DNA of 63,713 nucleotides, filler included, from Dugesia japonica (lineage: Eukaryota): assembly GCA_001938525.1 (NCBI GenBank). It is 6 parts of 6 records of this genome, joined end to end, with 100 filler letters (N's around TTAATTAATTAA, not from the genome) between each part and the next. Parts side by side here need not be neighbours in the genome. Positions count along the whole stretch, not along the records: positions 43,453 to 55,272 come from MQRL01625299.1; 5 more parts are not named here. One strand, 5' to 3'. Below the pieces are notes generated by a model, which made no database searches, had not been told where the DNA came from, and worked only from the letters and a program-made list of their open reading frames with translations. Position 1 is the stretch's first letter, and each line of letters opens with the position of its first letter. Of the stretch, positions 35,799 to 58,574 are shown one piece after another. Position numbers and translations under genes: made by a program.

Positions 35799-35815
35799 TT
35801 TTTTATCTTAAGAAA

Positions 35816-36304: not shown

Positions 36305-36335
36305 AATAATACTATATAAAATAGCTTACGGACAA

Positions 36336-37415
36336 ATGAATACACAACAAGTTAATAATAGAATTCAAGAGTTAAAAGATTTAATTAAAGCCCAAAAGAA
36401 ATATAATGATTTTTTCTGTGGAAATGTTATTGAATCAAGAGAATTACAAAGTACTTTATCTGTTTTACAACAACCAACAATTTCAGAAATAAAAAGTCAA
36501 ATTAATAAAAGTCAAACAACAGAGAAAATACCAATAGAAGATGAAATAATAGAGGATAAAAAAGTAGATTTATTCACGAAAGATGTTATTACTAACATGT
36601 TAATGTCTAAAGATGTAAATCCATTTACACCAAGTAATTTAACAGTTAATAGTGATATACTATCACAAAAATTAATTCCAATAATTGATGAAANNNNNNN
36701 NNNNNNNNNNNNNNNNNNNNNNNNNNNNNNNNNNNNNNNNNNNNNNNNNNNNNNNNNNNNNNNNNNNNNNNNNNNNNNNNNCATTTATCAATAAATAATT
36801 CAATTTATGAAGATGAATATGAAGATGGATTTGTTGATGTGATGATGGGCAATTTTAGTACTACTACTAACCATTTAAATACTTCTATGATGAAGTTTAT
36901 AGAAAAATATTTAACAGAAATAATAAAACCTCCCGCAAGACATGGTTATTGTAATTTTTTAAAAGGAGTACTTGATATAAAAAGTAAACCAACTACAATA
37001 CCAGAACAACCTAAAACAGTTAAAAAAGAAGAAGAAAAACGTAAACCTAAAAAAGTTAAAAAACCAGTTAAAGAAGAAGAAAAACCTAAAACAGTTAAAA
37101 AAGAAGAAGAACAACCTAAAACAATTAAAAAAGAAGAACAACCTAAACCTGTTAAAAAAAGAAGAAGAACAACCCAAACCTGAAAAAGAAGAAGAACAAC
37201 CTAAACCTGAAAAAGAAGGACAGGCACTTAAATTAAAAATGGGTCCCTCTGGGCCTCTAGCATTATTTGAAAAGTTAACACTTTTAATTTCAGCTGCGGA
37301 ATCTGGACATAACAATGTTGATGAAGAAATAAAAAAGGTATGTAAAAAATTAAAGATGATGGGTTTAATATCTAATAAGATTTATGATAAATATAAAACC
37401 AAATATTTCTCGTGA
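36336..37415 (+). pseudogene. Polinton conserved hypothetical protein with KKEEE(Q/K)PK repeats
   Basis: ORF broken by a gap and a frameshift near 37160; ends LFEKLTLLISAAESGHNNVDEEIKKV, similar to the L.LL.....AGN....EI motif seen in Polinton proteins. Confidence 0.55.
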
Positions 37416-37481
37416 AATATTTTACATGTTACATTTTAACACTCTTCGTGGCTATATTTATTTCATAGAAAATAGCAAAGC

Positions 37482-38162
37482 ATGAGTCATCAATTCTTAG
37501 TTGTTGGTAAAGACCAAGATTTAATTATTGATTTAAAATTTCCTATAGAATTAGATTCAGAATATGAACTTGGATTGTTATGTTTTTCATGTTACAATAT
37601 TACTTTTAATGTAACAAATAAAAATAATAAATATACTGTTGATAGTGTTGAATATAAACTTGAACCCGGATAATATGAAGTAAAAAAAATATCTGACAAA
37701 TTAAAAAAGAAACATGAAATAGAAGTTCAAGCCGATACAGCAACTGTAAAATGTATCTTGAATACAAAAAAGATATTAACATTTAATGAGAATTCTTTCT
37801 TTCATGGAATGTTAGGTTTCATCGCAAAAACTTATCACCATGGAGAATATTTATCAGAAAATAAAGTTGACATTTCAAATATTAACACAATAAGCATAAC
37901 ATGCAACATTGTTAAAGGTAATTATGTAAAATCTAAAACAGGTGAAACAGAACAAATAAATTTATTATATTCATTTCCTATTAATACAGTTGGCTTAGGC
38001 TATAAAATACTAGAAAGACCTAAAACAATAATTTATTCTAAAATTAATACAAATTATATTTCAAGATTAAAATTAAATGTAGTAGATGAACATTTTAAAA
38101 CAATAGATTTTAACCAAGAGACAATTACTGTTTTAGTTCATTTACGTAAATATAGACTTTAA
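37482..38162 (+). pseudogene. Minor capsid protein (penton)
   Basis: FPIELDSEYELGLLCFSCYN...NVTNKNN...LEPG*YEV and INTISITCNIVKGNY...LYSFP...GYKILERP..IIYSKIN...LNVVDEH..IDFNQETITVLVHLR; the two ORFs share a frame with one stop at 37671. Confidence 0.85.
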
Positions 38163-38255
38163 AATTTAATGTCACATTTAACATGTTACACTTTACACAA
38201 AACATTTTACATCTTTACATTTTACATTTAATAAATAGCAAAGCAAACAAAGTGC

Positions 38256-38677
38256 ATGAATTATTGTTTATTAGACTTTTTAAAAACATTTGGAATCTCT
38301 ACAACTACAAATTTTGATTTATATTCAATTGCTGACTTTTTAGAATTACCTCTTGAGATTTATATGAAGATTGAATGAAATACCTAAAGAGCTAACTGGT
38401 AATATTATTTTTAATTATCAAAATTCAAATCAAAATGGAACACATTGGACATGTTACACAAAAGGTTATTACTTTGATTCTTTTGGTTTAAAACCTTTAG
38501 ATGAAATAGTGAAACATGTAAAAGTTTATAATGATTTTTCAAGTTCAACATTTTGGTACTAACATTTGTGGTGTATTATGCATTTATTTTTTATATAAGA
38601 TCGAACGAAGTGAGTTCACTGATATTATATCTGAAATGTTAACACTTTATNATTCACTATTAGAAAAAGATGAATAA
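38256..38677 (+). pseudogene. Adenain-like (C5/Ulp1-fold) cysteine maturation protease
   Basis: GTHWTC (His), YFDSFG (Asp), QVQ..GTNICGVLCIYFL (Gln/Cys); two frameshifts (about 38370 and 38538). Confidence 0.88.
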
Positions 38678-40919
38678 ATTTGGTGAAAGTATATTAAATT
38701 TAAATACAACAGAAGTATTAAAAAAGATGGATGCTAAACTTAAAATGGCAGATGCTTATAATGAAAATAAATTTGTAAATAAAGCAGGTGACACAATAAC
38801 ATGTTTAAAAATAATAGAAGATCCTATAGATCTCTCTGATGCTGTTAATTTAAAATATGTAAAACAATTAGAAGATAAAATACAATCTCATGAATTAGTT
38901 TTTACAAAACATTTAAAGGTAGATAAAGCTGAAATCAACAAAGTTTATTTACAATATAAAGCTGAACGTTTAAATAATCCAGCTTTGAATGATAAAATTA
39001 AAAATCTAACAAATAAATGTTCACAAACAAAATATTATAATATTATTAGTGAAATTGAAAGATTGTTGATAGAAGTGCTTCCTTTTAAAAAAAGTGATTT
39101 ACTTGTCAAGTTTAAAGAAATAGAGCGTGGTGATTTAAATAAAAAACTTACAAATGATGTTGAGATGTTACATGTTACACTTTACAAATTACATGATAAC
39201 ATAAATAAGAAAACATTTAATCAACATTTAAGTAATATTAATTTACTTAAATCTAACAGTAAAATTTTTTTACTTAAAACTTCACATATAAGAAAAGAAG
39301 TTGAAACAATAAGACCAAAACTTCACCCAAAACATATTAAAAGATTTAATGATACATATGAAACCTATAAAGAAACACTTAATGATAAAAATTTAAAAGA
39401 ACTAATTGATAATTATTTGCTTCATAAATTTAATGAAAGTATTTATAAAATATTATTAATTAAATCTAATGATAATAATCTTCCAGAATTTTCTATTATT
39501 GATAAATATATTTATAATTTAGATTTTAAAAGAAAAGGAAAAGATATTTATTGTATTTATTTACATACAACATTAAATGAAGAAGTTACGATAAAAATAT
39601 CTGGATCATCTGAAGTTCAAAGTTATTATTATATAATTAAAATTAATACTATAACAAAGATATTTGTTCACGAGAAAAAAGAAGATAATAAAATAAATGT
39701 TTTTCGTGATAGTTCTGAATTCACCACACCGCCCACAGGAAAAATAAGTTATATTGAAATTATTTTATCAGATAAATTTAACTTGTATGAATTAAGTATT
39801 AACTTATTTAAATTTGATATTCTTGATAGGTTAACTAAAGAATTTGAAAAGATAAAAGAAAAACTTCACCCAAAACATCTTAACATGTTTAATGTTTTAT
39901 TTAAAAGTTATAAAGAAAAACTTACACCTATAGCATTAAAACCTTTAAGAGAAATGTTTGATAATTATTTAATTTATATTAAAAGACCTCCCGACGGACA
40001 AATAATATTTTCAATTGTGCGTGGCGAATTTAGTTATATGGAGAAATATGTAAATGATTTTGATTTTAAACGAAAAGGTAAACATATTGTTTTACATATG
40101 AATATTAAAAGAAAACTTACTATAACTATATATGGTCATTCGACATTAGAAAAATTTACATATGCGGTTAATTTTAATCGTTTAGGTGTATCATTTTTAT
40201 TTATTCCCCAAAACAATACATTTAACATTTACAGAAAAAGCACTGAAAACACAAAAGATAAAATTATAAAATATATTGAAATACTTTTTCCAGAAGATGT
40301 TAACATAATTAATTTAATCATTAAAATTATTACATTTAAACTTCCAGATGTAATAAATAAAGAATATGAAAGAATAAAACCAGATCTTGGAAGATTACAA
40401 TTAAATAGAATAGAAAAATTAATAAAAGAATATGAAGAAAGTGGTGAAGAGTTGCCATTTAAAAGTATAAAAGATTTAATTGATAATTATTTACCATTTA
40501 AACATGATACATTTTCTGAACCACCAATATTTTTTCTTAAAGTAGATAAAACATATAATCTTCCTTATTATTTTATTTATGGAAAAGTAGAAAGAATAGA
40601 TTTTAAAAGAAAAGGTAAAATAATAATAAAGGATGAATTGGTATTTACACATTTTTTTTATCTTGAAGAACCATTTATTGTTTCAATAAAGACATATTTA
40701 CCTTTTAATTTAAAAAAAATTAGTGTTGATGGTTATTCTGAGAATAAAAAATTTAAATTCCCTATTAAATATAATAACAACATAATATCACACAATGTGA
40801 CTAATAACCGTTTCAGCTCTAATATTTTTTACTTTTCTGAAGAGTATAATGTTAATATAAACTTTATTGAAATAACTTTACCAAAAAGAATTTCTATTAA
40901 TCATATTTTAATTGAATAA
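38670..40919 (+). CDS. 749-aa putative fibre/attachment protein with three internal repeats
   Basis: Intact ORF; N-terminal FVNKAGDT...DPIDLSDAVNLKYV fibre-like motif; three repeats each containing DNYL, DFKRKGK and I.(Y/F)IEI. Confidence 0.6.
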   Translation: MNKFGESILNLNTTEVLKKMDAKLKMADAYNENKFVNKAGDTITCLKIIEDPIDLSDAVNLKYVKQLEDKIQSHELVFTKHLKVDKAEINKVYLQYKAERLNNPALNDKIKNLTNKCSQTKYYNIISEIERLLIEVLPFKKSDLLVKFKEIERGDLNKKLTNDVEMLHVTLYKLHDNINKKTFNQHLSNINLLKSNSKIFLLKTSHIRKEVETIRPKLHPKHIKRFNDTYETYKETLNDKNLKELIDNYLLHKFNESIYKILLIKSNDNNLPEFSIIDKYIYNLDFKRKGKDIYCIYLHTTLNEEVTIKISGSSEVQSYYYIIKINTITKIFVHEKKEDNKINVFRDSSEFTTPPTGKISYIEIILSDKFNLYELSINLFKFDILDRLTKEFEKIKEKLHPKHLNMFNVLFKSYKEKLTPIALKPLREMFDNYLIYIKRPPDGQIIFSIVRGEFSYMEKYVNDFDFKRKGKHIVLHMNIKRKLTITIYGHSTLEKFTYAVNFNRLGVSFLFIPQNNTFNIYRKSTENTKDKIIKYIEILFPEDVNIINLIIKIITFKLPDVINKEYERIKPDLGRLQLNRIEKLIKEYEESGEELPFKSIKDLIDNYLPFKHDTFSEPPIFFLKVDKTYNLPYYFIYGKVERIDFKRKGKIIIKDELVFTHFFYLEEPFIVSIKTYLPFNLKKISVDGYSENKKFKFPIKYNNNIISHNVTNNRFSSNIFYFSEEYNVNINFIEITLPKRISINHILIE

Positions 40920-40920
40920 A

Positions 40921-41490
40921 ATGGAGAATGAAAGTCTTTATCCGAATATTGATGAAAGTAAAAACTATACAATTTTAGATTTAAAAAATAAACTTGCGAT
41001 CTCTAGAATTCGAGATTTTGAAAATGATCTTTATTATATTAAAGATAAAATTAAACATTATAAGAAAATACATAAAAGATGGAATAGAATAGATTCANNN
41101 NNNNNNNNNNNNNNNNNNNNNNNNNNNNNNNNNNNNNNNNNNNNNNNNNNNNNNNNNNNNNNNNNNNNNNNNNNNNCACTTACTACAATCGGTATACCAA
41201 TAATAACTGGTGCAATATCCGTGTTACCTGTAATTGGAACATTTAACACATCACTTATAAAATCTAGAAAAGAGAAGTATGAAAAGTTAATTAAGAAACT
41301 TGAATGTGTAAAAAATAAATTATTCTTATTTCAACAAAAAGCAGTTAATGATGAAATTTTGACTGATGATGAATTATTGATTTCTAAAAATATAGTTAAT
41401 GAAGTTCATGAGTTGATTTCTGGTCATAAAAAAGAAAAATCTAAAACTTATGATGCTGATTTAAAGTTTTTAGTTGAAAATCAAACTTAA
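40921..41490 (+). CDS. Polinton accessory helical protein with central hydrophobic hairpin
   Basis: MENESLYPNI, coiled-coil segments and hydrophobic LTTIGIPIITGAISVLPVIG; partly in an N gap. Confidence 0.55.
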   Translation: MENESLYPNIDESKNYTILDLKNKLAISRIRDFENDLYYIKDKIKHYKKIHKRWNRIDSXXXXXXXXXXXXXXXXXXXXXXXXXXXLTTIGIPIITGAISVLPVIGTFNTSLIKSRKEKYEKLIKKLECVKNKLFLFQQKAVNDEILTDDELLISKNIVNEVHELISGHKKEKSKTYDADLKFLVENQT

Positions 41491-41634
41491 GTTATTAATG
41501 AAATGAAGCAAAAACTAGAAATTTAGATGTAAAATGTAAAGTGTAATTACTTTATGTATCCTTTGTCTAAAATGACACACGCGCGTGTCAAAAAGTAAAA
41601 TTTTGTATGTGTGATCAAATTTTTTATTTATAAA

Positions 41635-43143
41635 ATGGAGGTAATAATGAATGAATCACTTATAAATGAAATATGTGGATTATGTTGTAAAACATGTGGT
41701 TATAAAGTTAAACTGTTTTTATCAATGTCACCAAAAACAAGTAAATGGGATGGAGCACAGTTAAAACCCGAATTTTTTAATAAAACTACTAAAGAAATGG
41801 ATGCCTTACAAAATATGCCTTAAGTTAAAAAAGTTTAAAAAAATAAAACACTTGAAGAAGAAATAGAAAGTGAAAAAGAAGAAATAGAAAGTTCTGAAAG
41901 TGAAATAGAAATGGAAGAAATAATTAAAACATTTAAAAAAGAAGAAATAGATGAAATAGTTAAAACAATTAAAAAAGAAGGTATAAAACCAATAGAAGAA
42001 GTAAAACCAATAAAACAATTAAAACATACAATATTTGAAGAAGAAGTAAAACCAATAGAAAAATTAAAACATAAAATATTTGAAGAAGTAAAACTAATAA
42101 AACAATTAGAACATAAAATAGTTGAAGAAGTAAAACCAATAGTTGAAGTACCAAGTGAAATAGCAATTAATGAAGAAGATTTTATACAAATGAAACATGA
42201 TCAAGATGGAAGTGATTATGAAATAGAATCAATTACATCTGACTCTGTACAATCCATACAAGAAAATCAAATTGTTAAACGTAACATTGAATATGTGCAA
42301 ATACCAAATGATAATTTAGTAATAATTACTAATCCTGATAATTTAACATTATTAAAAAGAAATACATTTGAAGAATTACCATGCTTAGAAGAATATGATA
42401 GCCCTAAATTTGATATGAAAATTAATCCAAAAGAAACAAGTATTATTAGGATGGAAAATTATATAAAACTGTAGAAAATAGTCAAATAGTTAATGGACAA
42501 TTAATATTACCATTGCCAATTAGTAAAAATGAAAAAGATCAAATAAGATTGAACAATGAAAGAAGGAAAAAAAATAAGAGCAAAATATTTTCCAACAGAT
42601 AATGAAGATGATGTTGTATTAGCAATGAATAAACCAACTACATTCAGAATGGAACTTTATAATTCCTTTAATGAAAATAAAATATAGAAAGTAGTATTAT
42701 TACCTATTAATCCATATGAATTTCGAGAAAACTGTGCTATATTATCAACAGAAAATCCAAATGAATTATTAGTAAAATTAAGGAGTTGGAATAAAATATT
42801 AGTAATGCATAAACGTGCAACATTATATTCCTATGCAATGATAGGTGCAATATTATACACTTTAAAATGAAGATTTAAAGTTAATAATCAGAAAAAACAT
42901 TATAATGATTTTTTAAATTTTATAGCAGGATATGGATATGTTTATACAATGAGTTACATTAATAGATTAATTAGATTTGCTAGAATAGCAGAAACATGGC
43001 CAGGAATTATTGAAAGTAATTTATCGTTTAGGAAGATTCAAGATAATTTTGCTGAGCTTGAAGAAATAATAGCTACAGAAAGTGCGAAGATACAGGAACT
43101 AAATATGAAAATAGAATCACGAAGACAACTAAAATTAAAATAA
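41635..43143 (+). pseudogene. Polinton accessory gene(s): Cys-motif N-terminus, EEVKPI repeats, helical C-terminus
   Basis: CCKTCG, acidic EEVKPI(K/E)(Q/K)L repeats, C-terminal GYGYVYTMSYINRLIRFARIAETWPGII; several stops and frameshifts. Confidence 0.5.
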
Positions 43144-43350: not shown

Positions 43351-43454
43351 ATNNNNNNNNNNNNNNNNNNNNNNNNNNNNNNNNNNNNNNNNNNNNTTAA
43401 TTAATTAANNNNNNNNNNNNNNNNNNNNNNNNNNNNNNNNNNNNNNNNNNNNTT

Positions 43455-45420
43455 TGTGAAAAAGCTTAAATTTTCTCTTCTTTTTTAAAATGTCTAAAAT
43501 TATTGTATTTTACTCTTAAAATTAAAATTAAAGCTATTTTTCTCTAAATTATTTGAAAATTATTTATTCAATCAATTATTTTGGTCACTTTCAATAAATA
43601 TTTAAAATTATTTCAAATTATCTAATGCTTAATAAAAATTTTAATTATTATAATTAAAGTTTGAAATTAACTGTGTTCATTAAGGTTAAAGATTGACGAT
43701 TTTTAACCACGTTATTCTTAGCATTGAATTCTCTATCTAATAGTTACTTTGATGTTTAAATTTGATTTAAGTTTTTTATTTTCATTAATACTCAACTCTA
43801 ATTTAAAAAAACATAATTTTAACTATTTATTTGAAAGATTTTNCTAAAATTAATGTGTTTTCACATAAATTCAAGTTCTATGTACTTTATCTGATAATTA
43901 TTTGAAAATTATTAAATCTATCATACTTAATATATTTTATCAATTATATGAGTTATTTCCAATAATTATTAAGAAATTATTTTAATGAATCAATGCCTAA
44001 TAAAAAATTTCTATTATAAAATAAATATTAATTAAAAAATACATGCGAAATTTAATTTGATTNAAAAATATTTCAAAATTTCATCAATAATTAATAAACA
44101 TTTTCTATTATAATTTAAATTTAACCATAACAAATTTTAAATTGAATTATAATCTAATTTATTTTCAAAACACGATTAAACATTTACTTATAAAAGTATA
44201 GTTTTAATCAAATTAAACATTGAAATTAATCAATTCATCATACTTAATTTATTTAATCAATTATAGGAGATATTTTTAATAAATAATTACAAATTTGTTT
44301 TCAAAATTATTAATACTTAATAAAAAATTCCTATTCTAAATTAAATTTTACGATAAAAATGGAATACTAGTGCACAGAGCTTTGATTACTGAGGTCAAGT
44401 AAAGAGTAAGGTTTGGTGATTTTAGGGTAATATATTTGTAAATAGTGTATAATTCTCTATCAAATAGACTGGTTTTTAATTAAATTTGAGATACTTTTTA
44501 TTTTTATTTAATTTTTGAGAAATAAAAACTTTTAACTTTTTTCATAGTAATTTAATTTGACAAATTTCTACCGTATATATTCTTGATCAGTAAAAGATTC
44601 TCTATCGAATAGTACTTGGATCATTAAATTTGGATGAAAATTTTAAAAAATAAATTTTTATTTGTTCTCGATTAACCAGAATCGGTATTTTTGACCATAT
44701 TTTTTCGAATTTTCTTTGCAAAAGTTAGTTTAATGATTTTAGGTGTTGTTTTTCTTGATCAGTAAAAGATTCTCTATCGAATAATGTATGTTTTGTTACG
44801 ATTTGAGCAGAAGAATTTTCAAAAATTGTCAAAAAATCTCAGGTTTATCCCATTGGCTTAGTCCCAGACAAGATTTGGTGATTTCTAACTAGGTCAGTCC
44901 TAATCAGCGTAAAATTTTTTATTGAATAGACTATGCTATAATTAGATTTCAGTTACCCTTTTTAAAATTCATAATTTCCTCCCGGACTCCCAAAATAAAG
45001 TACATGCTTTTTCTATATAACTTTTTATATATAAGATTTGTTTATGTAAACGATTTTAGGTTTACATATTTGGAATCAGTGAAAGGTTCTCGATCGAATA
45101 GATATCTTGCTGACTAATTTTGAGACACTTTTTTATTTTTTCGAAAAAGTTAAGAAATCTAAAAGGATAGCTGTATATCTTCGCTATGAAGCATTTTGAA
45201 CGAGGGATATTTTACCTTTGTACAGTCACATTTTTTATCCTGAGTAACATAATACCAAATTTGAAATCATACGAGTTATGTACACAGAGAAAATCAAGCA
45301 CCAAAAATCAAAATTTGAGATTTTCCACTACAAAACCACATTTATTTCATCCCGGATAAACTTTGGCGATTTTAGGTTTATATATTTGTAATCAATGGAA
45401 AATTCTCTATCTAAAAACAT
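43455..45420 (+). repeat. Another partial copy of the AT-rich family with recurrent TTCTCTATCGAATAG motifs
   Basis: 44490-45350 is collinear with 4970-5835; 44818-44872 is the reverse complement of 1-57. Confidence 0.8.
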
Positions 45421-46219
45421 GGTTATTTAATGTAAAGATGAGAAATAATTTTTTCAAAATATTTTTATGTGAAAAATAATCTCAATCGAATTCTGCATCG
45501 ATTGATGTGAAAATCTCGACAAAAAATTTTTTCAAAAATTTTCGAAATTTCAAATGTACCGGATTCCCATAAAAATTTGATTTAAAAATTTTAAAAATCT
45601 GAAAATTTAAACAAAAATAATCTAATTTCACCAATTTATCACAAAAGCCGAAATTCATTTTATGAGATTACCTTTGCTCCAGAAAATTACAGGAGTTCAG
45701 CGCAAGAAAATTCAAGAAGAATGAAGGGCAGGGCATTTAAATTTTATAATTGAAAAATTCTACCATCATCCAGAAGGGTACTGCAGGATCCCAAAGAACG
45801 AACCAATGGGCAATCTAAAAATATAAATAAAACAAAGACACGATCATCATGTGCCATTCCAAAAATAGGCACCAATGAAATGTCAAAAAACACGGAAAAA
45901 GTTCTAAAAATTGGCAACAACACCAATCAAAGGCCAGAACTTTGAACTAAAAATAAATAGCCAATGAGGACGATGTCGAGATGCATCGTAAAAGGGTAAA
46001 AAACCCCGTATTTTAGAACAGAAATAATCACTATTTTGAAATTTATTCGCTGTTACAGCATTGTGTTACTCACTAAAAAGAACGTGTACGAAAAATACTT
46101 GTGATAATCACTTTCATATTGCAATCCGTAAGGCAGCAATTGATATTAATTTTGCCAACTAAAACTATCATCAAATTGTAGAATAAGTAAAGGACTCAAT
46201 CAAGGACAAGAATAAGATT

Positions 46220-46993
46220 TCCACAACGAATGGCTGTAGGAGTCGAACCACGAAAATCATCAATGTTACGGTTAAATGTGGCATGCAATTCACTCCAATT
46301 GATGTAAATAAAGGAGGAATCTATAGCAGGGAAGATCTTGAGAAAGCTAGGGAAAATATACTACTTCCAGTCCGAAGGATGCAAATTCTATCGAATATAG
46401 TACAATTAACCAGTGGAACTAACATAGACGAATGCCTAAATTAGGAACCACTCTTGTCAGCAGATCATTTCCAGAAAATCACTGAAAATGTCATGCGGAA
46501 AATGTGGGGAAGATTTATAATATTTGGCCAAGCAATGGCAGGATTGTTGGGAGTTATGTTGATAATTTCGGTAGCACGAGTAGTGATTACCCAATTGTTT
46601 CCACATATACAAAAGAGAAAAGAAAGTAAATTAAAAAATGGTAACCGGAATATTTCCATTCTTAGCCAAAACAATGGTGCTTAATAGTCACTCTAAAGAC
46701 ATCGAATGGGTAAAACGATTCATTCGGAAGTTAGGACAAATAAGAGGATCGGANNNNNNNNNNNNNNNNNNNNNNNNNNNNNNNNNNNNNNNNNNNNNNN
46801 NNNNNNNNNNNNNNNNNNNNNNNNNNNNNNNNNNNNNGAAAGATTTAACAACAAAAGCGAAAGTAGGAGCAGCAGTGATGACGATAAAGGAGAAAGCAGT
46901 GGAACTCCACATGTAACCAGTTATAAAACCGCCATGGAATACTATACGGAGTTGAAAAGACAACAATATGAAAATATCAGTAAAATGCAATGA
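46220..46993 (+). pseudogene. Chuvirus-like (class III) glycoprotein / env, C-terminal remnant
   Basis: GGIYSREDLEKARENILLPVRRMQILSNI ... MWGRFIIFGQAMAGLLGVMLIISVARVVI ... MVTGIFPFLAKTMVL matches the GIY..DL...R..I..P..R stem and WG.F..FG..AG..G membrane-proximal/TM pattern; frameshifted. Confidence 0.65.
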
Positions 46994-48178
46994 CTAAGAA
47001 ATGCATTAAAATTCGGAGGAAATGAAAGTGAAGGTAGACCACGTCGGGAAATAAAAGAAGCATAATTAAGGAAGCCTGTGTACGGGACGGAAAACCTCGG
47101 ACGAAATAAAAGAAAGCCTACGCATGGAAGGAAGATACGTGAAGTCCTAAGTACATTAACCAGTATGTTAAAGGAAGGCCACGTAGTTAAGCACACTAAA
47201 GAAAGCCTGATTAGAGGAAGCATTAAAGGAAGAGAGCCGGAAGCGTTCGCCTGCACGAAAAAGGTACTCCAAACGGGCCCGCCGATCCCTCAGGAAACTC
47301 TCGGTACTCCCCCATAAATTTAGGAAAAGTGTGCACTGTTACCTAGGAATTTTAAAAGGAAGAAAAGGAAGAAAGCCAGAAGATTTCGCCTATACTACAG
47401 AAAAATGGGTACTCCCACAATTAGGAAGAGATAATCTGGCGTTAATTAGAAAGGAATTAAGGAAGCGTTAAGATTAAAGGAAGACTTAATTAAGGAAAAT
47501 AAAAAAGGAAAAATTAAGGAAGATGGTCATGGGGCTCTGATGACAAGTGTGGAGCAGCATGATATTAAAGTAAGTTTAAAATCAGGAAGAGGAGTGATTG
47601 TCTCCTAAGTAAAGACAATTAGAAGTAAATTTTTATTCTAGAAAAGTTAAACTACAAGTATTACAAAACCAAAATCGAAATACAGTAGGCAACCAATAAG
47701 CCGGACTCTGACAAAATAGATTCCGACTCGGAAAATAGAAAACCACTTACAAGGTCTAACATATCCGGAATATCTACCCCAATCTCAGTTTTAAAGGAAA
47801 CTTAGATTAAACGATCCAAGTCTTCCAGAAGTAAAGTCAGATTGCCATTATAACTTGATCAGGAAGGACATATCTATTCTGGCAGACGGAAAATTTCAGC
47901 AAACCGACACCCCAGATTAAACCACAAACTCTAGAGACAATCAGCTCAAACAGTAGCCCAAGTGATAAAGAAAATCAAATACTCCAGAAGCGAACCCACA
48001 GTAATTCCCCTACCGATAAAAACCGACTAAGCGAACCTCGAAAGAGACGGAGATAGTAATTGGTAACCAAGGAAGCACCGAAATTTTAACACTAAGAGAC
48101 GATAACCAAAGAAACGAAACCACCCCATCTATAACTGAAAAGCCTAAAATAGAAACCAACACAGCAAGGAACAAAAAC

Positions 48179-49215
48179 ATGTCAACCAAAACTGAAAACC
48201 AACGACCGGAGTGGAAAATAAAATTTGATGGCGAATATTTTAGTGGGATACCAGAAAAATTCGACGAATTTATCCAAAATTATGATATGTATGCCAAAAC
48301 TTGTGGCTGGGACGAGGAAGCAAAAAGAAAGCGGTTACCAGTTTACTTAACAGGAGTAGCCAAAACCGTGCTTTGGGATCACACTAAGGGCATGGAAGCC
48401 ATTCCCGAAAAATGGGAAGATGTAGTGAAGATATTAACAGATAACTTCCAAAATTTAAAACTGACTGGACAAGATTTTGAACAATTTACAAACCNGAAGC
48501 AACAACGAGGGGAAACTCCACAAGCTTATATGATGGAACACAAGAGGCCTGGCAAGCTGGCCTTAGGAGATAAACTGGAAGACAGTCAAGTGTTAGCTAT
48601 ATTCTTAAATGGATTACGCGACGAGAACGCCAAACTAATGGTAAAGTTGAGTAAGCCAGTGACTCTNNNNNNNNNNNNNNNNNNNNNNNNNNNNNNNNNN
48701 NNNNNNNNNNNNNNNNTAAATGGATTACGCGACGAGAACGCCAAACTAATGGTAAAGTTGAGTAAGCCAGTGACTCTACAAGACGCTCTGTCCACATTGC
48801 GAATTGTAGCAGATAGACCATCAGAAAGAATATTCAAAGTAGAAGGACAGACAGAGGAAACTACACCGCGGATATCAGATTTCATACCTAACACGCAATC
48901 AATGATGAAAACTTTGACTCCAGGACAGAAACGGAATAACAGGAATGAAAGACCCAACTACCTCCGAGGAAATGGTGGAAGATTTATTGCTCCTCGGAAC
49001 AATTGGCAAAATAACCGGGATATACAATGTAATTCCTGTGGAAGGAGGGGACATATAGCCCGAGATTGTAGAAGTCGAGGCAATAATAATAAAAATAATC
49101 GATTTTGTACGCACTGCAAGAAAACCAACCACAATGTAGAAACATGCTTTTTGAAAAATCCAACTGTCTGTTATAAGTGCAACAGAAGAGGGTAAATGGC
49201 AAAAGAATGTCCAAA
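48179..49215 (+). CDS. LTR-retroelement Gag (capsid plus three CCHC knuckles; third hit by a stop at 49193)
   Basis: FSGIPEKFDEFIQNYDMYAKTCGW...LPVYLTGVA, KQQRGETPQAY (MHR-like), FLNGL, CNSCGRRGHIARDC, CTHCKKTNHNVETC, CYKCNRRG*MAKEC. Confidence 0.92.
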
Positions 49216-49640
49216 CGGAAACCAAACAAATTATAATCGAAATACGAATACGAATCTGAATAATCTAATGCAGGAAAATGAGATATTACGGCATTGAGTA
49301 AACGAAAACAAGGGACAAGTCAACTTAGTGCATCAGAATACTTTTGACAATGTGCACCATAAAGTTCAACAAGAAAATGATTGGCTCAAGTGGCAAAATC
49401 AAGATTTACAGGTGCAGCAGGGAAGACTAGCAAAAAGAAACTTGCTAAACGAACCAAGAATCAATGTAATATGGTCAGAACACACAGACAAATTTATAAC
49501 CAACATGATGAAGCAACGGAGGTTACCGAAATGGAAGATACTCGGAACGAATACTGATTACGTCACCAGAATGCGAGTGGACCAACGAAATCATATATAA
49601 AACAATAGAAACATCAACGACAACCACCGGACGAAGACGG

Positions 49641-50705
49641 GTGACGAATCACTTACTTCGATTATACAAGCACCCAGAAGTACACGCAAAAGTAAAAGCC
49701 AACTGGCAGAAAACAATATCGGATGACATCGCCGAGCTTTATAAAGAAACCAAATTAGACGATTACGAATTCGAAATTCAATATGTATGGCATAATAACC
49801 CCAAGGTAACTCCGAAAGGACCAAAGCTATCACTAAAGGGATTGACAGTTCGATACTTGAAAGAAGCCCTTAACGAAATAAAATGGAGCAAAGTAAACGA
49901 TATCAAAGTTATGACGGTAAATCCGTATCTCGAATTACCGCCGTTTAATGATCAGCAACAATGGAATGGAAAGTGGAATAGGCATAGATTACAAATAGGT
50001 AATATAGGAATCAATATTCTTCCAGATGATAAAAATTTAATTTATTATGGGGCACGACCGCATGAAACTACAGTAATCAAATTGATAAATTGGGGTTTAG
50101 AGAGAAGAGAAGTTAAATGCAACATGATAAAGATGCTGCAAATGCCGGCAAGAGAAGTAGTAGCGATGCGTAAAGTGGAGAAAATGGTTAACCGTGTACA
50201 GATAGAGAAGGAAAAGTTACCCCGAGAGAAGTATTGGATGATAATAAATAGAATTTACGACATATATGATGGGTTGGAAATACCCGAAGAAATTGAGGAT
50301 CAATGGCTCATGATTAGACAGAAGTATGCCGAAGAAATATTAGCAACTACCAAAATTCGGGACTTTAAATTATATTTGAATATAGGTAAAAATGAACAAG
50401 AAAGGACTAAGTATAGTCGATTAAAGCCACAAGGAATAACCATGATGGATTTGATGGATGCCGTTACCGATAAGTGGCAAGAATATGGATTAAACATGGT
50501 ACCTCTATTCATAAACGGCAAATTGGTTGAGACAGATGACGAGGACAAACACATATACCAATGCCATGCAAAACCCGGAGAAATATGTGAGTTAGATGTA
50601 GAGGAGGAGCCACGGACCGCCCAATCACCAGATCTTGAGGAACGAATGGAAGAAATAACAGAATTATACGTATCTGAGGTATTGACAGTATTAAGGAACA
50701 AGTAA
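49641..50705 (+). CDS. Post-Gag polyprotein segment with two ubiquitin-like modules
   Basis: DYEFEI..GLTVRYLKEAL..PDDKNLIYYGARPHETTVIKL and DFKLYL..GITMMDLMDAV..LFINGKLV..EDKHIYQCHAKPGEICELDV. No PR/RT/IN motifs. Confidence 0.6.
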   Translation: MTNHLLRLYKHPEVHAKVKANWQKTISDDIAELYKETKLDDYEFEIQYVWHNNPKVTPKGPKLSLKGLTVRYLKEALNEIKWSKVNDIKVMTVNPYLELPPFNDQQQWNGKWNRHRLQIGNIGINILPDDKNLIYYGARPHETTVIKLINWGLERREVKCNMIKMLQMPAREVVAMRKVEKMVNRVQIEKEKLPREKYWMIINRIYDIYDGLEIPEEIEDQWLMIRQKYAEEILATTKIRDFKLYLNIGKNEQERTKYSRLKPQGITMMDLMDAVTDKWQEYGLNMVPLFINGKLVETDDEDKHIYQCHAKPGEICELDVEEEPRTAQSPDLEERMEEITELYVSEVLTVLRNK

Positions 50706-50893
50706 AAGAAAATCAGAAAATACAGAATATTGATAACCTATCAATAATTACCACAAAATCAGTTGAATTTCTAGAAGGGACACCGACAATACGTGATATC
50801 CGGATAAATTATACGAAACCAATAACTGAAGAATCCGCCACATTACACGCCATCAACGATCTATTAAGAGTAACACGGGAAACTCGACCAGTA

Positions 50894-52603
50894 GTGAATA
50901 TCAAAGTATATTGGAAAATGATGAATAACCAACGGGATCTGGCAACCTATGGACAACTCAGCTTGTGGGCTCGAGAACAATGGTGGAATGAGAAAAACTT
51001 ATACGAAGAGGAAGTACAAAATACATCCACTATATCCGACTATTTTATCAGAGTCAGTCTCCTCAGCAAAGAGGGAAGCATAAAGAAGGTGGATATGATA
51101 ACCTTGGAGGGATTAACTATCCGACACGTTATAAAACCAACCAAGAAATGGTTATGGCCAAAATCACTCAAGTCATATAAAATACAGGCGGGAGCAACAA
51201 TGATCATACTAGCCAAGAAAGAGGATCACATCTTTCTACATGATATTAAACCAGGAGAGATCACAGAAATCAAACTAACACCGCGAAAAATGACAATAGA
51301 TATCCCGATACCAAAAATGCCTGATACCGATCAACTCATATTCAACATGATGAGCCTATATATACAGGAAATATTACCGGTGGAGAATAAACGCCTCATA
51401 AATACTTATGGGGAAAACAAAGCCCAAGTAAACATGGTTAGGAATAATGAGTTCGAGGCCACAGATCCAACATCAGATGAGGTAGAGGAGGAGGAAGAAA
51501 CCTCAGAAGACACAGTCAAACCCAGACTGTTACCATTTAAACAAGAATTCGTTGATCCTTTCAGTTCTCCTCAAGCAGAGCGGATATCGAAGAAAATTTC
51601 TGATTTCTGTTATTTTCTGGGAAGAATACCCAGGGCGACATTTTGGAAGGCATTGCATTTGCCAACGGATTTGTCAAAGTATGACGAAATAGCAAAAGAA
51701 GAACGCAACAAATGGGAATCAGTACTCAAGCTACATATGGGTACAGTTAAGGCCAGTGCCAAGGGAGAGGATTTCCAGGTCACTATAGAATATCAGACAC
51801 CAAACAAAAAACTCAGGAAGGAACCGGAATTGGCTGTAATGCATATACCACATTTTAATAGTACATCGGCTGTGGAATTACAGGAAATTATAGAATCATT
51901 GGATATAGCTGACCAACAGAAAGGCTATATAATCACAAGCAAATATTTGAGATTCCCTATAAAGTTTGAAGGAAAACAACATTTAATAGACATAGTGTTG
52001 AGACCAGGTGAAAATACCTTTCTCCAAATACAGAAACCAGAAGACTACACTCCAGGCCCAGTTAAGTCCATGGAAGAAGTGTTACAACAACTAGAGGATT
52101 TATATGAACAAGAAATCAACAGTGGTAAACTGTTTGAAGAAGTCGACGATAGAACAATGGAGATAAATATCGAGTTATGGGAAGACAGTAAAACATGGGG
52201 AAGTCTGGCGCGAGTAATAATGAAAATACTCCTGACCCTTGAAGAAAACTTGGAACTATTAAGAGATGACAAAGTCAAACAACTAATTTTGAAGTTAAAT
52301 CAGCTACGAGCTATAAGTCGTATGCCAGGAGACGTAATGGATGCAATATTATATAAGGCAGTTCGAATGATAACTAACGAAGCCGTAATAATCAAATTTC
52401 CAGATGAAAGCGAAATTCATTGGCAGGTCCAGATGAACGATCAGTGGTCTAAGTTACGGAGAAGGATTATAAAATTTTTGAATAAACAGCGTAACCTTGA
52501 TGAGGAGGAAACCGGAACACAATTATTATTACAGGAAGACGATATAGTACTCTATTATAACCAAGTAATAGAACCGGATCAAATGAGATTGCCAGGACGT
52601 TAG
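50894..52603 (+). CDS. Post-Gag polyprotein segment with three further ubiquitin-like modules
   Basis: DYFIRV..GLTIRHV..EDHIFLHDIKPGEITEIKL; DFQVTI..TSAVELQEII..QHLIDIVLRPGENTFLQI; VIIKFPDES..VQMNDQWSKLRRRI..MRLPGR. Same frame as Gag. Confidence 0.6.
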   Translation: MNIKVYWKMMNNQRDLATYGQLSLWAREQWWNEKNLYEEEVQNTSTISDYFIRVSLLSKEGSIKKVDMITLEGLTIRHVIKPTKKWLWPKSLKSYKIQAGATMIILAKKEDHIFLHDIKPGEITEIKLTPRKMTIDIPIPKMPDTDQLIFNMMSLYIQEILPVENKRLINTYGENKAQVNMVRNNEFEATDPTSDEVEEEEETSEDTVKPRLLPFKQEFVDPFSSPQAERISKKISDFCYFLGRIPRATFWKALHLPTDLSKYDEIAKEERNKWESVLKLHMGTVKASAKGEDFQVTIEYQTPNKKLRKEPELAVMHIPHFNSTSAVELQEIIESLDIADQQKGYIITSKYLRFPIKFEGKQHLIDIVLRPGENTFLQIQKPEDYTPGPVKSMEEVLQQLEDLYEQEINSGKLFEEVDDRTMEINIELWEDSKTWGSLARVIMKILLTLEENLELLRDDKVKQLILKLNQLRAISRMPGDVMDAILYKAVRMITNEAVIIKFPDESEIHWQVQMNDQWSKLRRRIIKFLNKQRNLDEEETGTQLLLQEDDIVLYYNQVIEPDQMRLPGR

Positions 52604-52681
52604 ATTAAATTCTTGAAAGGGTTCCCTGAGGGCTGTTTTACCCCAGCCCCGTTTTCTTCACCCAACTCAGGTGGAACCCCA

Positions 52682-53065
52682 ATAGAAATAACAAATGAAG
52701 AATATGAAATCGCAAATATTGAATCGGGAAGCAATAATTTGTTGGAATATATGATGTACTATATGAAGCTAGACATATACTTGCTAGCCGATGTATTCCA
52801 AACATTTCGTAAAAAAGCACTTGAAGAGCATGGATTGGAGCCACTACGATTTGTTTCATTGCCAGGATTAAACTGATCAAGTGCTCTCAAGTCGATGGAT
52901 AGGTAAATAGAATTACTCCAAGATACTGAAATGCATCGTCTATTTGAGTTAGAAATTCGTGAAAGAATTACTTTTGTGAACAAACATTATGTCCAGGCAG
53001 ATGAAAATATCTCACTGCTTTACATTGATATTAGTAACCTATATTGTTGGGCCTTAACACAACCA
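52682..53065 (+). pseudogene. pPolB fragment (Exo III to palm motif A) of another Polinton
   Basis: ITNEEYEIA..NLLEYMMYYMKLDIYLLADVFQTFRK..GLEP..FVSLPGL..IELLQD.EM..LFE..IR..LLYIDISNLYCWALTQP. Confidence 0.88.
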
Positions 53066-53306
53066 ACATATTAGTGAAACATCTTATATTACTCGTAGCA
53101 CAAAATAGTTTAAAATGAACAAATAAAAATGTATTAAAACATCTAATTAAAAATAGTTAATTATAACGAATAAAATTCATATGAAAGGCATGAACCACAA
53201 AATAATATGATGACCACAAAAATTGATAACAATTATGAGTAGTTAAAAAAAACCAATGAGATCATGCAAATGAAAAAAAGTTATAAATTGTCATTAATTG
53301 CAGAAG

Positions 53307-53432
53307 TTATTTCTCGAATTTGATACTCATTGCTTGAAGATAGTTTTGTCGTGCTATATTTTCTTCGGCTGGACTTGAAATGGGTGACCACTTTGGATCA
53401 CCAGAAAATAAGCGAATACATTTAACATAGCC
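53307..53432 (-). CDS. ADI1: Last exon of acireductone dioxygenase (methionine salvage)
   Basis: tttattctag acceptor then GYVKCIRLFSGDPKWSPISSPAEENIARQNYLQAMSIKFEK*, matching the ADI1 C-terminal pattern NY.KAMRLF.GEP.W....RPAD...AR..Y. Upstream exons not found. Confidence 0.75.
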   Translation of the reverse strand, partial: GYVKCIRLFSGDPKWSPISSPAEENIARQNYLQAMSIKFEK

Positions 53433-53779
53433 CTAGAATAAAAATACAATTTTCAATAGTTAACAATAAACTATATTAATTTTATAATTAATAAAATGAT
53501 AATAATTTTTGGTAGTATTTAGTTTTAATAACTCCAATGTAATCCATAGTACAATAAATAATAATAAATCTTATACAATAAAAAAGCGCACGAACTCACA
53601 CTTCCCTCGTCAGCAAAGTGAGTTACAAATTAACAATGTAAAAAAGAGGCGATGAATTTTTGTGTATGATTACGTAAGTTAGTTGGAAAATCGTAATGTA
53701 AAAAGGCGACGAGCAAATTTATGTGCGATTTGAATTAATATTCCAAATCCATCATAGATAATATTATCCCAAGACAAAA

Positions 53780-54300
53780 ATTAGAATCAATCACACAAAA
53801 AATTATAATCTAACATATAAATTCAAAAAACTTAAAATTAACTTAATACACTCAATTATTTGATACAATAAAGACCTATAATATACTCAATCTACTTAAT
53901 ACAATCAATATAATCTATGGATTCATCAAATTTACCTAATTTACTAAAAGCATTCAATACATTCGACTTATTTAATTCATAAAGATTACTTGATTACTCT
54001 ATTCAATACAGTCATAAAGCCAATGATCATGGCAAACATAATGCACCTTACAATCTAAGCCAAATGTACTTAATAATCTGAAAAACACTCAGAAATCTAA
54101 ATAAACCAAATATAATACACTCATGAAGCTAAACTGATCACCATAGTTAATTAATTTAATATGTTTACTTCATCAAATACAATTAATTATATCCAATCAA
54201 TATGCTTAATTCATCGAGCCTACTTAATTCATAAATTAATTAATTCAATCAGATTCTATACCAAATACCCTAACTCTAATGTAACAAATGAACTCAAAAA
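53780..54300 (+). repeat. Interspersed repeat shared with 21622-22186
   Basis: Collinear identity, e.g. atatactcaatctacttaatac and cataaagccaatga occur in both. Confidence 0.75.
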
Positions 54301-55504
54301 TTTAAATAGATATAAAAAACACTGAAGAAATATAAGCAGGGGCCATACTTAAAAATATCACTAGGGGCAAAAATTTCAAGAAAAACCTAGTAAAAATTAA
54401 CTATTAAATTAAGAAAATTTAAATACATCCAGGGAAAATTAACCGATGAAAAATGTTACTAGGCACAAAACTTACAAATAGCACTAGAGGTAAAAATTTT
54501 TAAAAAAATCTAACAGTTGTAAAACTCAAAAATACTATCAAGGTAAAATTTAAAAATACTAACAGAGTCAAAATTCAAAACCAATACACTAAAAATGCAT
54601 CTATGTGAAAATTTTAAAATAGACCCATGAAAAATCTTACATAAAAATTTTAATTCTAAAATTAATTGCTAAAATAAACCAATAAAAAATTATAGAGTAA
54701 AAATTTAAACTAATTAAAATCAATAAACTCGGTTTAAAGAACAAATAATTTTTTATTTCAAAAAATTATTTAAAAAGCAATGATCAAAATTGCTGCTTTT
54801 TCATTTTCAATATTTCGGCAACTGTTCAGTAAAGTCTTATTACAAAATTTGATATGAAAACAGATTTTAAATAAATCTGAAAAAAATCAATTTTCATTTG
54901 ATTTTAATTGTAATATAAATTTTTTTCATAGATTTATATATGAATTTACCCGGTAGTATTTTTAAAAGTTAATTTTATTCGGTTAATTTTTCCAGTTAAT
55001 TTTAATATTTTATGTTCATTTAATTTTATATTTCATAATGGCACGAATTTCCGATCTTTTCATTTTAAAGATATAAAAAGCAACAGAAAATAATTACTTT
55101 CCAGCAGTGGTATATCACAAGTAGTTGTTGAAAACAAGTATTGGAGAGTCTAGATGATGAATAGCATACCAAGGGAGGGAAAATGTTTAAATAAATGCGC
55201 GGCAATACCAGAGAATGATAAAAATTTACTGATTGATGACAATGATTTTACACCATGGTTTGACAACGGTGANNNNNNNNNNNNNNNNNNNNNNNNNNNN
55301 NNNNNNNNNNNNNNNNTTAATTAATTAANNNNNNNNNNNNNNNNNNNNNNNNNNNNNNNNNNNNNNNNNNNNTTGACCAAATCGTCCCAAGATTACCTAA
55401 ACTGACCAAAGCCGAAGAAAAATTTGTCCCAATCACCCAAAAATTATCCAATCCTGAGAAAAAATTAGACCAAATTCACCTGGACCAACGAAAAATAAAC
55501 CTTT

Positions 55505-55631: not shown

Positions 55632-55651
55632 AATATCTCACAAATGTAATT

Positions 55652-56034
55652 ATGTCATTTAATACTTTGAAAGTTGAGGGTGGGGATGGAACTCATATTC
55701 AGAAAGCTTTGGTTGAAACAATTTTAAATTATAATGGAGATAGTAAAAATATATGTCTTGTAGCAATAGGGTATAGATCAGGTGAAGTTAGAAAAGATTC
55801 TATTAAAAAATCCAAATCATTGTCTCTAGATGGTTCATTAAAATTAGATTTTATGGATCAACATTTGTATTGGCTCCGGATTTCGATATAAATCAGAGTC
55901 AATTATCTCAACAGAGAAATTTACGATTGGGTATAAAATTTGCAAAAGCTTTAACTGTACCGGAATTTGTAATTATTTATGGAGTATTTGAAAATGAAAT
56001 CCAAATTAAAGCAAACAGAACATTAATAATGTGA
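55652..56034 (+). pseudogene. Polinton major capsid protein remnant (internally deleted)
   Basis: KALVETILNYNGDSK..L..IGY...R...IKKSKSLSLDGSLKLDFMDQ..Y and C-terminal IKFAKAL...VIIYGVFENEIQIKANR. Confidence 0.7.
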
Positions 56035-56099
56035 ACAAAATCTATTGCAATCAAATTGTCAAATATGAAGTAATTTTAATTTATATATTTTTATTTTAT

Positions 56100-56420
56100 T
56101 TAATTAGTTCTATTCAGATAATTCAAATCGGTTCAAAATTGTTGGGATCAACGTGGTTAGGAGTATATCCAGTAAATAAAGCCATAATCTTCAATACTCA
56201 AACCTCTAATCTCGGTGGAGAACATTGTATAGCAGTTTACAATAAACCAGCAAAAATATTAGTATTTGATCCGCTTGGGTATTATTATCCAGAAATATTG
56301 GTTTCACATCTCTCAAAAATATCAAAGCCAATTGAGTGTAACAAAAAAAATATTTCAAAACCCATTCACAACGACTTGCGGACAACATTGTTTAATATGG
56401 TTAAAAAATCAACATTATAT
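56100..56420 (+). pseudogene. Adenain-like protease remnant (second Polinton family)
   Basis: WLGVYP..IIFNT..SNLGGEHCIAVY..VFDPLG, then after a frameshift QNPFTTTCGQHCLIWL. Confidence 0.78.
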
Positions 56421-57774
56421 TTGAAATTCATGTCTATGTAAATAAATGTTAACATTGTAGTAGTCAATATTGTATTATGTTATATGTAATAAATGTATAA
56501 AATTAAAATGTTTTTGTTTTTTTATTTATTTTTAACAAATTATTCTTTGTTTTAATCATGAATAAACTTTGTTAATTTCATGACTAATAATTTGTTGTTT
56601 AAATATTATCGCTTTACTATTGGTTGATTAGTAAATCATTGAATAAAAAGGTATTAATTATTTATTTTTGTCACAATTTTAAAATTAATTTTTAACACAG
56701 GAACAAATATTATCTTATTTTGTAAGTTTTATTTTTTTTAATTTAAATTTAAATTTATCGTTATCTTATTTTAGTTAAAATGAATTCAAATAATACTAAT
56801 GAAGGATATTCGAGAAAAAGATTATTTGTGAAAGTAAATTTATCAATATATTAAGATTGTAAATTTATTATTTATTTTCAGATTATAAACTAAAACCAAT
56901 ATTTGAATGGAGCACCGATTTCTGAAAATATAAAGAAAATGGTATATTCATTATTATTTGATTATTACTATTTCTTTTCCTCAGTTATTAGAAATGTTGA
57001 ATGACGAGAAAAGAAGAGAAAATTCCATGGATCCGAGCCTCGTTCCTAATGATTCGGACCGAATTTATGACATGATTAATAAGAGTAAGAATATATTTTT
57101 ATTATTAATTTTCTTTTATGAGGTTAAATTTAAAAGTTTTATTTATCTGAATAATAATAATACATTAACTTTGTTTTTAAATAATAATAATGTGAACTTA
57201 TGTTCATTTGCTTTTTTTTAAAGTTAAATATTCTCAATAATAATAAATTATAGACTATTGATTTCAAAAATTTTTAAATAATGTTATATTGTAAATTATG
57301 TTGATTTGTTTTATTTTAAAACTTGTTAATTTTCAGACATTCATATAATTTGAATTGATATATTTAAATTATTTAGAAATGTCATTTAAGTAACATAAAC
57401 GTTTTAATATACAATATGTATGCCAATTCAATAAAGAAAATGCAACATGGTTGCAAATTATAATAAATTTCAAAAGTTTAAAATTATCACAACTCTTTCT
57501 ATTGTCAATAAAAATTGATTTTAGTAGGGATTTCATTGAAAAATCTTCCATTTTGGAGCATTTTTATTCACATAATTCATTTCCCTTAGGAGCATTTATC
57601 CTCTTCTCTAGCCCATTAGCAATTTCATCTATATGGTTTTAGCACCAAATCTTGCAGAGACATTCACTCGGAAGGATTACTTGTTTACCTTTTTAAAGCT
57701 TTAAATTTGAGTGAAATCTCTTTATTCAAGTATTTATTATTTCATTTTTGTGGAATTTGCTGCAGTATTTATAG

Positions 57775-58132
57775 AGAGATGACAAAATCAAAGTCTCCAT
57801 AAAATTATACAATGATGTTCAACAATCACTCAATTAAAATCTTATATTAGCCAATGATGTGAAACAATTCCCCAATCAAAGTCTCAATAAAATTCTGCAC
57901 TGATGCGGAGCAATTACCCAAAGAAAGTCTTAATAAAATTATGCAATGATGTTGAACAATTACTCTGAAAGTCTCAATGAAGCTACACAATGATGTGAAA
58001 CAATTCCTCAATGAAAGATTCAATAAAATTCGACAATGAAATTGAATAATTACTCAATGAAAGTTTCAATACTCTCATGCAATGGGGTTGAACAATTACT
58101 CTGTGAAAGTCCTAATAACGTTATGCAATAAT
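57775..58132 (+). repeat. Tandem repeat, unit about 42 bp
   Basis: About eight copies of aaagtctcaataaaattatgcaatgatgttgaacaattactc. Confidence 0.85.
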
Positions 58133-58523: not shown

Positions 58524-58560
58524 CAATTCGATATTTCGACCTTGTCTTCGTCAGTAATTA
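58524..58560 (-). ncRNA. Minimal hammerhead ribozyme (left arm of palindrome)
   Basis: TAATTA-CTGACGA-A-GAC AAG GTC-GAAA-TA-TC-GAATTG on the minus strand. Confidence 0.65.
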
Positions 58561-58574
58561 ACTTTTTAAAAAGT

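Follow-up and report, generated by a model that had tools for sequence, protein, structure and literature searches.

A chuvirus-type glycoprotein remnant beside a retrotransposon gag in a high-copy repeat family of Dugesia japonica

The window analysed here is a stretch of 63,713 nt from Dugesia japonica (GCA_001938525.1), and the element described below lies in the part that comes from MQRL01625299.1 (positions 43,453-55,272). Judged by its sequence, 46298-46594 is the remnant of a chuvirus-type class III glycoprotein of which the 3' part alone survives. As an env gene, it likely belongs to one high-copy Ty3/gypsy-like family with the adjacent gag and its cargo, and its place ahead of gag is likely the result of two copies lying head to tail with a shared LTR between them. 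We give an even chance to this tandem junction, in which the copies meet around one LTR at 47029-47529; the family order would therefore likely be gag-cargo-(pol)-env. The copy itself is dead, decayed, and gapped.

Env remnant, gag, and cargo in one compositional block

On the plus strand, 46298..46594 encodes the C-terminal part of a class III fusion glycoprotein of gB/chuvirus type. Read with X at its in-frame stop (46442-46444), it aligns to positions 471-570 of the 653 in PF24664 (Monjiviricetes_fusion) and scores 72.1 bits where the cut-off is 27 (E 3.2e-20), and the halves on either side of the stop match singly (E 1e-5 and 7.7e-10). A preliminary description of this DNA had proposed a chuvirus-type class III glycoprotein, and the match confirms it; similarity to class III fusogens, the absence of which had been named as refuting, was found. 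That description had also read a frameshifted, membrane-anchored ORF with two motifs. Both motifs, GIYSREDLEKARENILLPVRR at 46316-46378 and WGRFIIFGQAMAGLLG at 46505-46552, are present together with a predicted transmembrane anchor (46532..46588, plus strand; a 19-residue hydrophobic helix with a mean Kyte-Doolittle hydropathy of 2.36), but the motifs share one frame (+3), which is split by the stop.

An apparent frame change follows the transmembrane helix near 46600-46635 (frames read by eye) and falls within the probable cytoplasmic tail of Env (46595..46993, plus strand), which ends in a stop at 46991-46993. The tail is interrupted by an 84-N gap (46754-46837), so the link from transmembrane helix to spacer crosses an assembly gap. 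The tail has no Pfam match, and no frame of the plus strand of 45680-48180 contains a D[ST]G[AS] protease motif; none follows env. This truncated copy has no match to profile positions 1-470 of PF24664, and no sign of a signal peptide, a fusion-loop domain, or an intact ectodomain; nor did Pfam match anything 5' of 46298 when three frames were read with stops as X. The compositional block begins just ~620 nt 5' of the PF24664 match. A PDB sequence search with env was blank, a word-indexed search for the env piece among longer proteins found nothing, and viral contigs searched with env held no related loci.

Env, spacer, gag, and about 3.3 kb of cargo lie on one strand in a single compositional block (45679-52600). 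Its left edge is a change-point in T-content at 45679 with a log-likelihood gain of 33.5, versus 3.1 for the best composition change in the interior (45700-52600). All parts of the block have a GC content of 0.34-0.41 and an AT skew of 0.22-0.46. The earlier impression that the block is less AT-rich than its surroundings holds, with a GC content of 0.22-0.24 in the flanks that rises to 0.37-0.40 across env, spacer, and gag; the start then placed at 46220 moves to about 45679. The A-rich beginning of the block (45679..46297, plus strand) is possibly further decayed env ectodomain, and its left end is cut by an AT-rich host repeat (44400-45650). This very abundant repeat (depth 3-4 x 10^5), which truncates env on the left, is built on a recurring CTCTATCGAATAG-like word, and further copies of it lie near 1.4-2.3, 4.9-5.8, and 16.5-16.8 kb. 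N gaps are numerous in the window, and one of them (48606-48777) has a 61-nt duplication on either side.

At the right boundary (52604..53061, plus strand), a short, high-depth, GC-rich stretch is followed by a fragment from another element that resembles DNA polymerase B, and the retroelement is truncated there (~52600), ahead of any pol. The polB-like fragment (52736-52843) is 47% identical to a window ORF at 33116 (E 7.5e-9), and its PF03175 match reaches only E 0.082. We considered whether it is captured cargo and hold this to be unlikely, since its AT skew is lower (0.10, versus 0.22-0.46 within the block) and separate RNA reads continue past 53061. The stretch 52604-53061 shares its frame with the last cargo ORF, with one stop between them, probably by chance. 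The GC-rich sequence at the junction of the two (52615-52675) has imperfect inverted ends by eye and a depth of ~150,000 at 52623, and is possibly a tiny non-autonomous element.

The gag gene (48020..49195, plus strand) has an open frame from 48020 and an ATG at 48179, and encodes a capsid domain and three CCHC knuckles (49028, 49106, and 49169), the third broken by a stop. It matches PF03732 with E 1.4e-4 (22.4 bits, below the cut-off of 24.1) and PF00098 with E 8.6e-5. Among 1.84 billion protein representatives we found 303 Gag relatives at E<=0.001, the best with 30% identity (E 5.5e-31); none of the 20 relatives scanned carries PF24664, and several have gypsy-type protease, reverse transcriptase (RT), or integrase domains. 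No protease or RT motif was found in 45680-53100, and with pol missing from the stretch, Gag is the sole basis for assigning the element to Ty3/gypsy. A word-indexed protein search with gag found nothing, and viral and metagenome contigs contained no related loci. The leader ahead of gag (47538..48019, plus strand) is perhaps in part a decayed, low-complexity Gag N-terminus: the best relatives have up to 310 residues ahead of the matched domain, and tblastn matches extend back to 47987-48134.

Within the several broken frames of the cargo region (49298..52603, plus strand) are a helical segment, a weak SUMO-like domain (52400-52564), and an internal repeat. The repeat pairs 50232-50690 with 50909-51382 (E 7e-7) and is ubiquitin-like by eye. 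All 29 PDB matches of 52370-52600 are SUMO, though weak (best E 0.12), and Pfam has no Ubl match in the cargo. Single-sequence AlphaFold2 models of two cargo parts were unusable (pLDDT 33 and 38), Foldseek with the pLDDT-38 model returned nothing at E<=0.001, and the ESM Atlas gave only sub-0.9 leads. The PDB sequence search was blank for the ORF at 49512 and for the cargo repeat unit, and metagenome contigs searched with the cargo had no related loci. A codon-usage scan was too noisy for fixing frames. A BCL2-like domain at 52.05-52.4 kb was also considered and gained no support from phmmer, the ESM Atlas, or Foldseek on the pLDDT-38 model.

A pattern that we selected with the sequences already in view, [RKQ][IVC]N[MVL][MLIV], captures a recurring motif of the xIN(M/V/L) type that may be a protease cleavage signal; it was found four times in the 1564 gag-cargo residues (49316, 49457, 50115, and 51425, plus strand; shuffle mean 0.12, and none of 5000 shuffles reach four). 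It occurs one to four times in each of five Gag relatives checked, P0151 included, and is absent from the env and spacer frames. P0151 (23% identity) has a long extension after the knuckles in which residues ~955-1050 look ubiquitin-like by eye, and its sequence suggests that a Gag-Ubl cargo may be more widely shared; a word-indexed search for its post-gag part among longer proteins found nothing.

Repeat depth and RNA

Eight sequencing runs from three studies contain part of the stretch (best share 0.31; the top run may be its source and not independent), and the run index lists no RNA run as containing it. We placed two DNA contig sets (X1 and X2) and two RNA runs (X10 and X13) on 9 kb at 85% likeness. 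From the DNA sets, 24,110 and 26,200 contigs were placed, mostly 90-99% alike, and their summed depth, which is not a copy number, is ~10^3-10^5 over env, spacer, gag, and cargo versus ~8 for a unique flank contig. The block 45679-52600 is clearly a high-copy repeat family. The median X2/X1 depth ratio is 2.37 in env (3 bins), 1.77 in the spacer (2), 2.39 in gag (4), and 2.02 in the cargo (10), versus 0.79 in the flanks (6); 5 of the 30 bins lie outside these groups (1.24, 1.51, 1.57, 0.91, and 1.62), and the ratio is confounded with GC (0.35-0.46 in the element, 0.24-0.29 in the flanks), the unrelated polB-like bin itself reaching 1.62.

The two oligo-dT runs, of which about a quarter each was used, show env, gag, and cargo at an RNA depth of 0-0.7 and say little of other tissues or conditions. 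In X10, 47008-47609 reaches a depth of 1.2-3.7 in both directions and is the sole part of 45.8-52.4 kb above 1; in X13 the spacer has a depth of 0-0.3.

The preliminary description had assigned env to the same element family as the Gag-Ubl region. The support for this is indirect (one strand, no composition break, similar repeat depth), and no contig among those listed spans the stretch or the N gap at 46754-46837. The junction could also have arisen in assembly, or by recombination of distinct loci or families: a scaffold join across the 84-N gap, a collapse of two LTRs, or the env of a sister family joined via similar LTRs. The lack of a bridging contig, the high copy number, and the many N gaps, including the one flanked by the 61-nt duplication, speak for such a mis-join. 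Against it, 46838-48666 (tail, spacer, leader, and capsid domain) is gap-free apart from one N, the composition is equal on both sides of the gap, and the copy is well diverged from contigs that are mostly 90-99% alike, which favours unique assembly. We regard a mis-join or hybrid as unlikely, though it deserves some weight.

A candidate LTR between env and gag

The spacer looks like an LTR from its sequence signals, each of which is weak and which together favour this reading. A polypurine-tract-like run (47015..47028, plus strand; 13 of 14 purines) starts 22 nt and ends 35 nt after the env stop and directly precedes a TG. It is the sole such site before a TG in 46990-48180, with 0.75 expected over that whole stretch, and a purine run of this kind falls within the first 110 nt in 5.5% of simulations. 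From the TG, a candidate LTR of 501 bp (47029..47529, plus strand) runs to a CA and contains nine AAGGAAG and three AATAAA words; its terminal inverted match is only 3 bp. One base after the CA begins a weak tRNA-Pro-like primer-binding core (47530..47537, plus strand; 7-8 nt). Its first 7 of 12 nt match, with 4 mismatches in 12, the two tRNA-Pro primer-binding site (PBS) 12-mers compared, both from the errantivirus table of Chary and Hayashi (eLife 2026, PMC13524379), in a diverged copy; it is the best site in the 1.2-kb stretch and fails the rule of that source (12 nt, <=2 mismatches). In simulations, any 8-nt PBS core after a CA arises by chance in 4-8%, and both the polypurine and the PBS signals were picked after inspection, at 4-8% chance apiece. 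In six of the seven Pro-primed rows listed in the table, too, the PBS begins one position past the LTR, if its coordinate convention is as we assume (PMC13524379).

The preliminary description had seen a purine-rich spacer with a repeated word and a CA followed by a PBS at 47528-47537. The purine content of 47000-47530 is indeed higher (65% versus 59-61% elsewhere in the element), and AAGGAAG occurs there nine times (0.35 expected; none of 5000 simulations reach nine) and once in the other 6721 nt that make up the block; AAGGAAGCC itself, as an exact word, is found only once. Similarly, CATGGGGCTC is present at 47528-47537 as the sole match in the window at <=1 mismatch, with the imperfect PBS given above, and gag does follow it, though not at once: the open frame and the ATG come 490-650 nt later. 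TRF found only micro-repeats of 2-3 copies in the spacer. Its RNA folds worse than shuffles (z +1.96), so no structured IRES or packaging signal is seen. No tRNA gene was found in the window.

The same description had offered two arrangements, a tandem env-LTR-gag junction or an env located 5' of gag. Of these two hypotheses the tandem fits better, with candidate LTR-edge signals at both ends of the spacer. Besides the above-threshold PF24664 match, the tandem accounts for the unbroken interior composition, for the likeness of env, gag, and cargo in repeat depth and depth ratio, for the purine tract, TG..CA ends, and Pro-like core at the spacing described, including the one-position PBS offset of the errantivirus rows, for the restriction of X10 depth above 1 to the spacer in both directions, and for a protease-free env end that also lacks the cleavage-like motif (chosen post hoc) found four times in gag-cargo. 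Tandems sharing an LTR are, moreover, a common product of recombination (PMC5932611). On the other side, the window has no second copy of 47029-47529, no target-site duplication, and, in this stretch, no pol; the PBS misses the published rule, the inverted ends are short and both edge signals were chosen after looking; the depth ratio is confounded with GC; X13 covers the spacer with next to nothing; the N gap separates the transmembrane helix from the spacer; and no LTR edge is marked among the best-supported loose contig ends listed. Burro, the nearest counterpart in architecture, has its env in frame, with the cargo before it and the protease after it (PMC6431247).

The other arrangement would be a true env-first element (LTR-env-spacer-gag-cargo-pol-LTR) in which the AAGGAAG-rich spacer serves inside the element as a promoter or in the control of splicing or translation, and the PBS and polypurine words are chance. 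The unbroken composition and strand suit it, as does the lack of LTR-edge loose ends among the rows listed. Burro-like elements have accessory ORFs 5' of the polyprotein, with domains moving between the two (PMC6431247), ENV-GAG-POL elements are described in two oribatid mites (two Medioppia rows being F-type), and six Schmidtea gB-type elements in the table have no LTR or PBS called (PMC13524379). Both edge signals nevertheless fall where the tandem predicts them, RNA depth in X10 is confined to the spacer on both strands, and the literature searched yielded no gB-type env-first element. We therefore hold an env-first order to be improbable, and we are just as doubtful of its fuller version, a high-copy Burro-like giant with a free-standing gB-type env ahead of gag (env-gag-cargo-pol), control by the AAGGAAG spacer, and a tandem ubiquitin/SUMO-like cargo.

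On the preferred reading of a shared-LTR tandem, an intact element would have the order LTR-gag-cargo-pol-env-LTR. By analogy with errantivirus biology, it would be transcribed from the LTR and primed by tRNA-Pro. At the recurring motif, the element's protease would cut a joint polyprotein of Gag and cargo (with Pol). Env would be made from a separate gene as a membrane-anchored trimer and enable particles to fuse with other cells and enter them, an ability proposed for errantiviruses. Interference with host ubiquitin-type pathways, a role speculated on in Burro, is possible for the Ubl/SUMO-like cargo. Later insertions or deletions would have removed the 5' part of env and everything past the cargo. 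An enveloped, infectious element, a possibility raised in the preliminary description, finds no support in this copy, which is broken; the stretch has no pol, and the two RNA runs give almost no depth over env and gag.

Related elements and the rest of the window

The env remnant is of a kind already described and probably marks a new family member; its position before gag, the one unusual feature of the copy, is most simply a tandem junction. Ty3/gypsy elements with gB-type env ("ancient errantiviruses") are described across invertebrates by Chary and Hayashi, and share with the present locus a gB/chuvirus-type glycoprotein beside a retrotransposon gag in multiple copies in an invertebrate genome (PMC13524379). 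Their canonical GAG-POL-ENV order, placed in tandem, would yield the present junction; GAG-ENV-POL alone is reported in flatworms, nematodes, and bryozoans, and ENV-GAG-POL in two mites, the authors stating that other gene orders were not searched (PMC13524379). The present element differs from errantiviruses in the 3.3 kb of Ubl/SUMO-like cargo after gag (the word ubiquitin does not appear in the main text of PMC13524379), and in being a decayed copy with pol missing, placed in Ty3/gypsy from Gag only. The oribatid mite elements would resemble it in having env 5' of gag if the env-first order holds, and differ in their F-type env (two Medioppia rows) and short gag, as against a gB-type env and a gag with long cargo here (PMC13524379).

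The planarian element Burro, a giant gypsy-like LTR retrotransposon described by Arkhipova and Yushenova 2019 (PMC6431247), has a single ORF that joins a three-knuckle Gag to MATH, Ubi/SUMO, BCL2, a mononegavirus-like env, protease, and RT; accessory ORFs lie upstream of it. Burro/GYPSM1 and the present element are alike in a Gag with three CCHC knuckles followed by long cargo with a Ubi/SUMO-like motif (a weak candidate here), in an env related to mononegaviral fusion proteins, and in high copy number in an AT-rich host (PMC6431247). Burro env, however, lies in frame between the BCL2-like domain and protease, whereas env here ends in a stop before gag with no protease, and BCL2, MATH, BIR, and ankyrin domains were not detected here; the likeness is one of described architecture (PMC6431247). 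Anakin, a group of mosquito BEL/Pao elements, similarly uses a chuvirus-type glycoprotein as the env of an LTR retroelement (Dezordi et al. 2020, PMC7642597); the Gag here, by contrast, is of the Retrotrans_gag type, with relatives that have gypsy-type protease, RT, or integrase, and not the BEL/Pao Pfam families. Troyka (PMC12440569) was considered and set aside for its CG..CG ends, and the available portions of PMC11410931, PMC8532177, and PMC10175614 added nothing on env position.

The literature searched, which includes few subscription journals, also contained no Gag-Ubl element with a free env. Grohme et al. 2018 is said to define Burro-1 to -4, and either that work or Repbase may already include the present family. 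If the tandem is true, it adds to the gB-env retroelements a family with a Burro-like Gag-Ubl cargo and a separate terminal env that is not in frame, and bears on how often env changes position and on the cell-to-cell spread of cargo-laden giant elements. If env-first is true, the order is one described for mite elements only (F-type in the rows listed of PMC13524379), and one would have to ask by what means gag-pol, lying behind env, is expressed; a gB-type env-first element would show env moving among three positions within one lineage. A decayed, gapped copy cannot decide between the two.

The glycoprotein could also be unrelated to gag, either as cargo of the surrounding DNA or as a stand-alone chuvirus-derived insertion. 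By their motifs, we take 31915-43143, 55634-56441, and 12891-13253 to be Polinton/Maverick-like remnants (polB-, capsid-, adenoviral-type protease-, and ATPase-like), so that such genes stand on both sides of the element. Their Pfam support is weak (Peptidase_C5, E 0.059), and searches of Pfam, PHROGs, PDB, and phages gave none for the ORF at 34235 as a polymerase B. Nematode Mavericks carry a gB-like fusogen (10.1101/2022.07.12.499685), and solo chuvirus glycoproteins occur in mosquitoes (PMC7642597). The env, on the other hand, is retroelement-like in composition (GC 0.37 and AT skew 0.22, versus 0.25 and 0.12 in the polB-like gene) and repetitive to the same degree as gag. Between it and the Polinton-like genes upstream lie a scaffold gap and about 2.5 kb of other repeats. 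We consider an origin apart from gag very improbable.

Within the Polinton-like region, a 751-aa ORF (38664-40919) has no family match. Transposon debris lies at 8677-9219, 11665-12015, 20154-20824, 22738-23079, 58818-59377, and 62629-62937, and comprises piggyBac-type transposase (PF13843), gypsy RT (PF00078), and RNase H (PF17917) fragments, with gag-like and hAT-like pieces recognised by eye. The positions 57786-58150 and 58458-58677 hold a 46-bp tandem array of about seven copies and a 112-bp palindrome.
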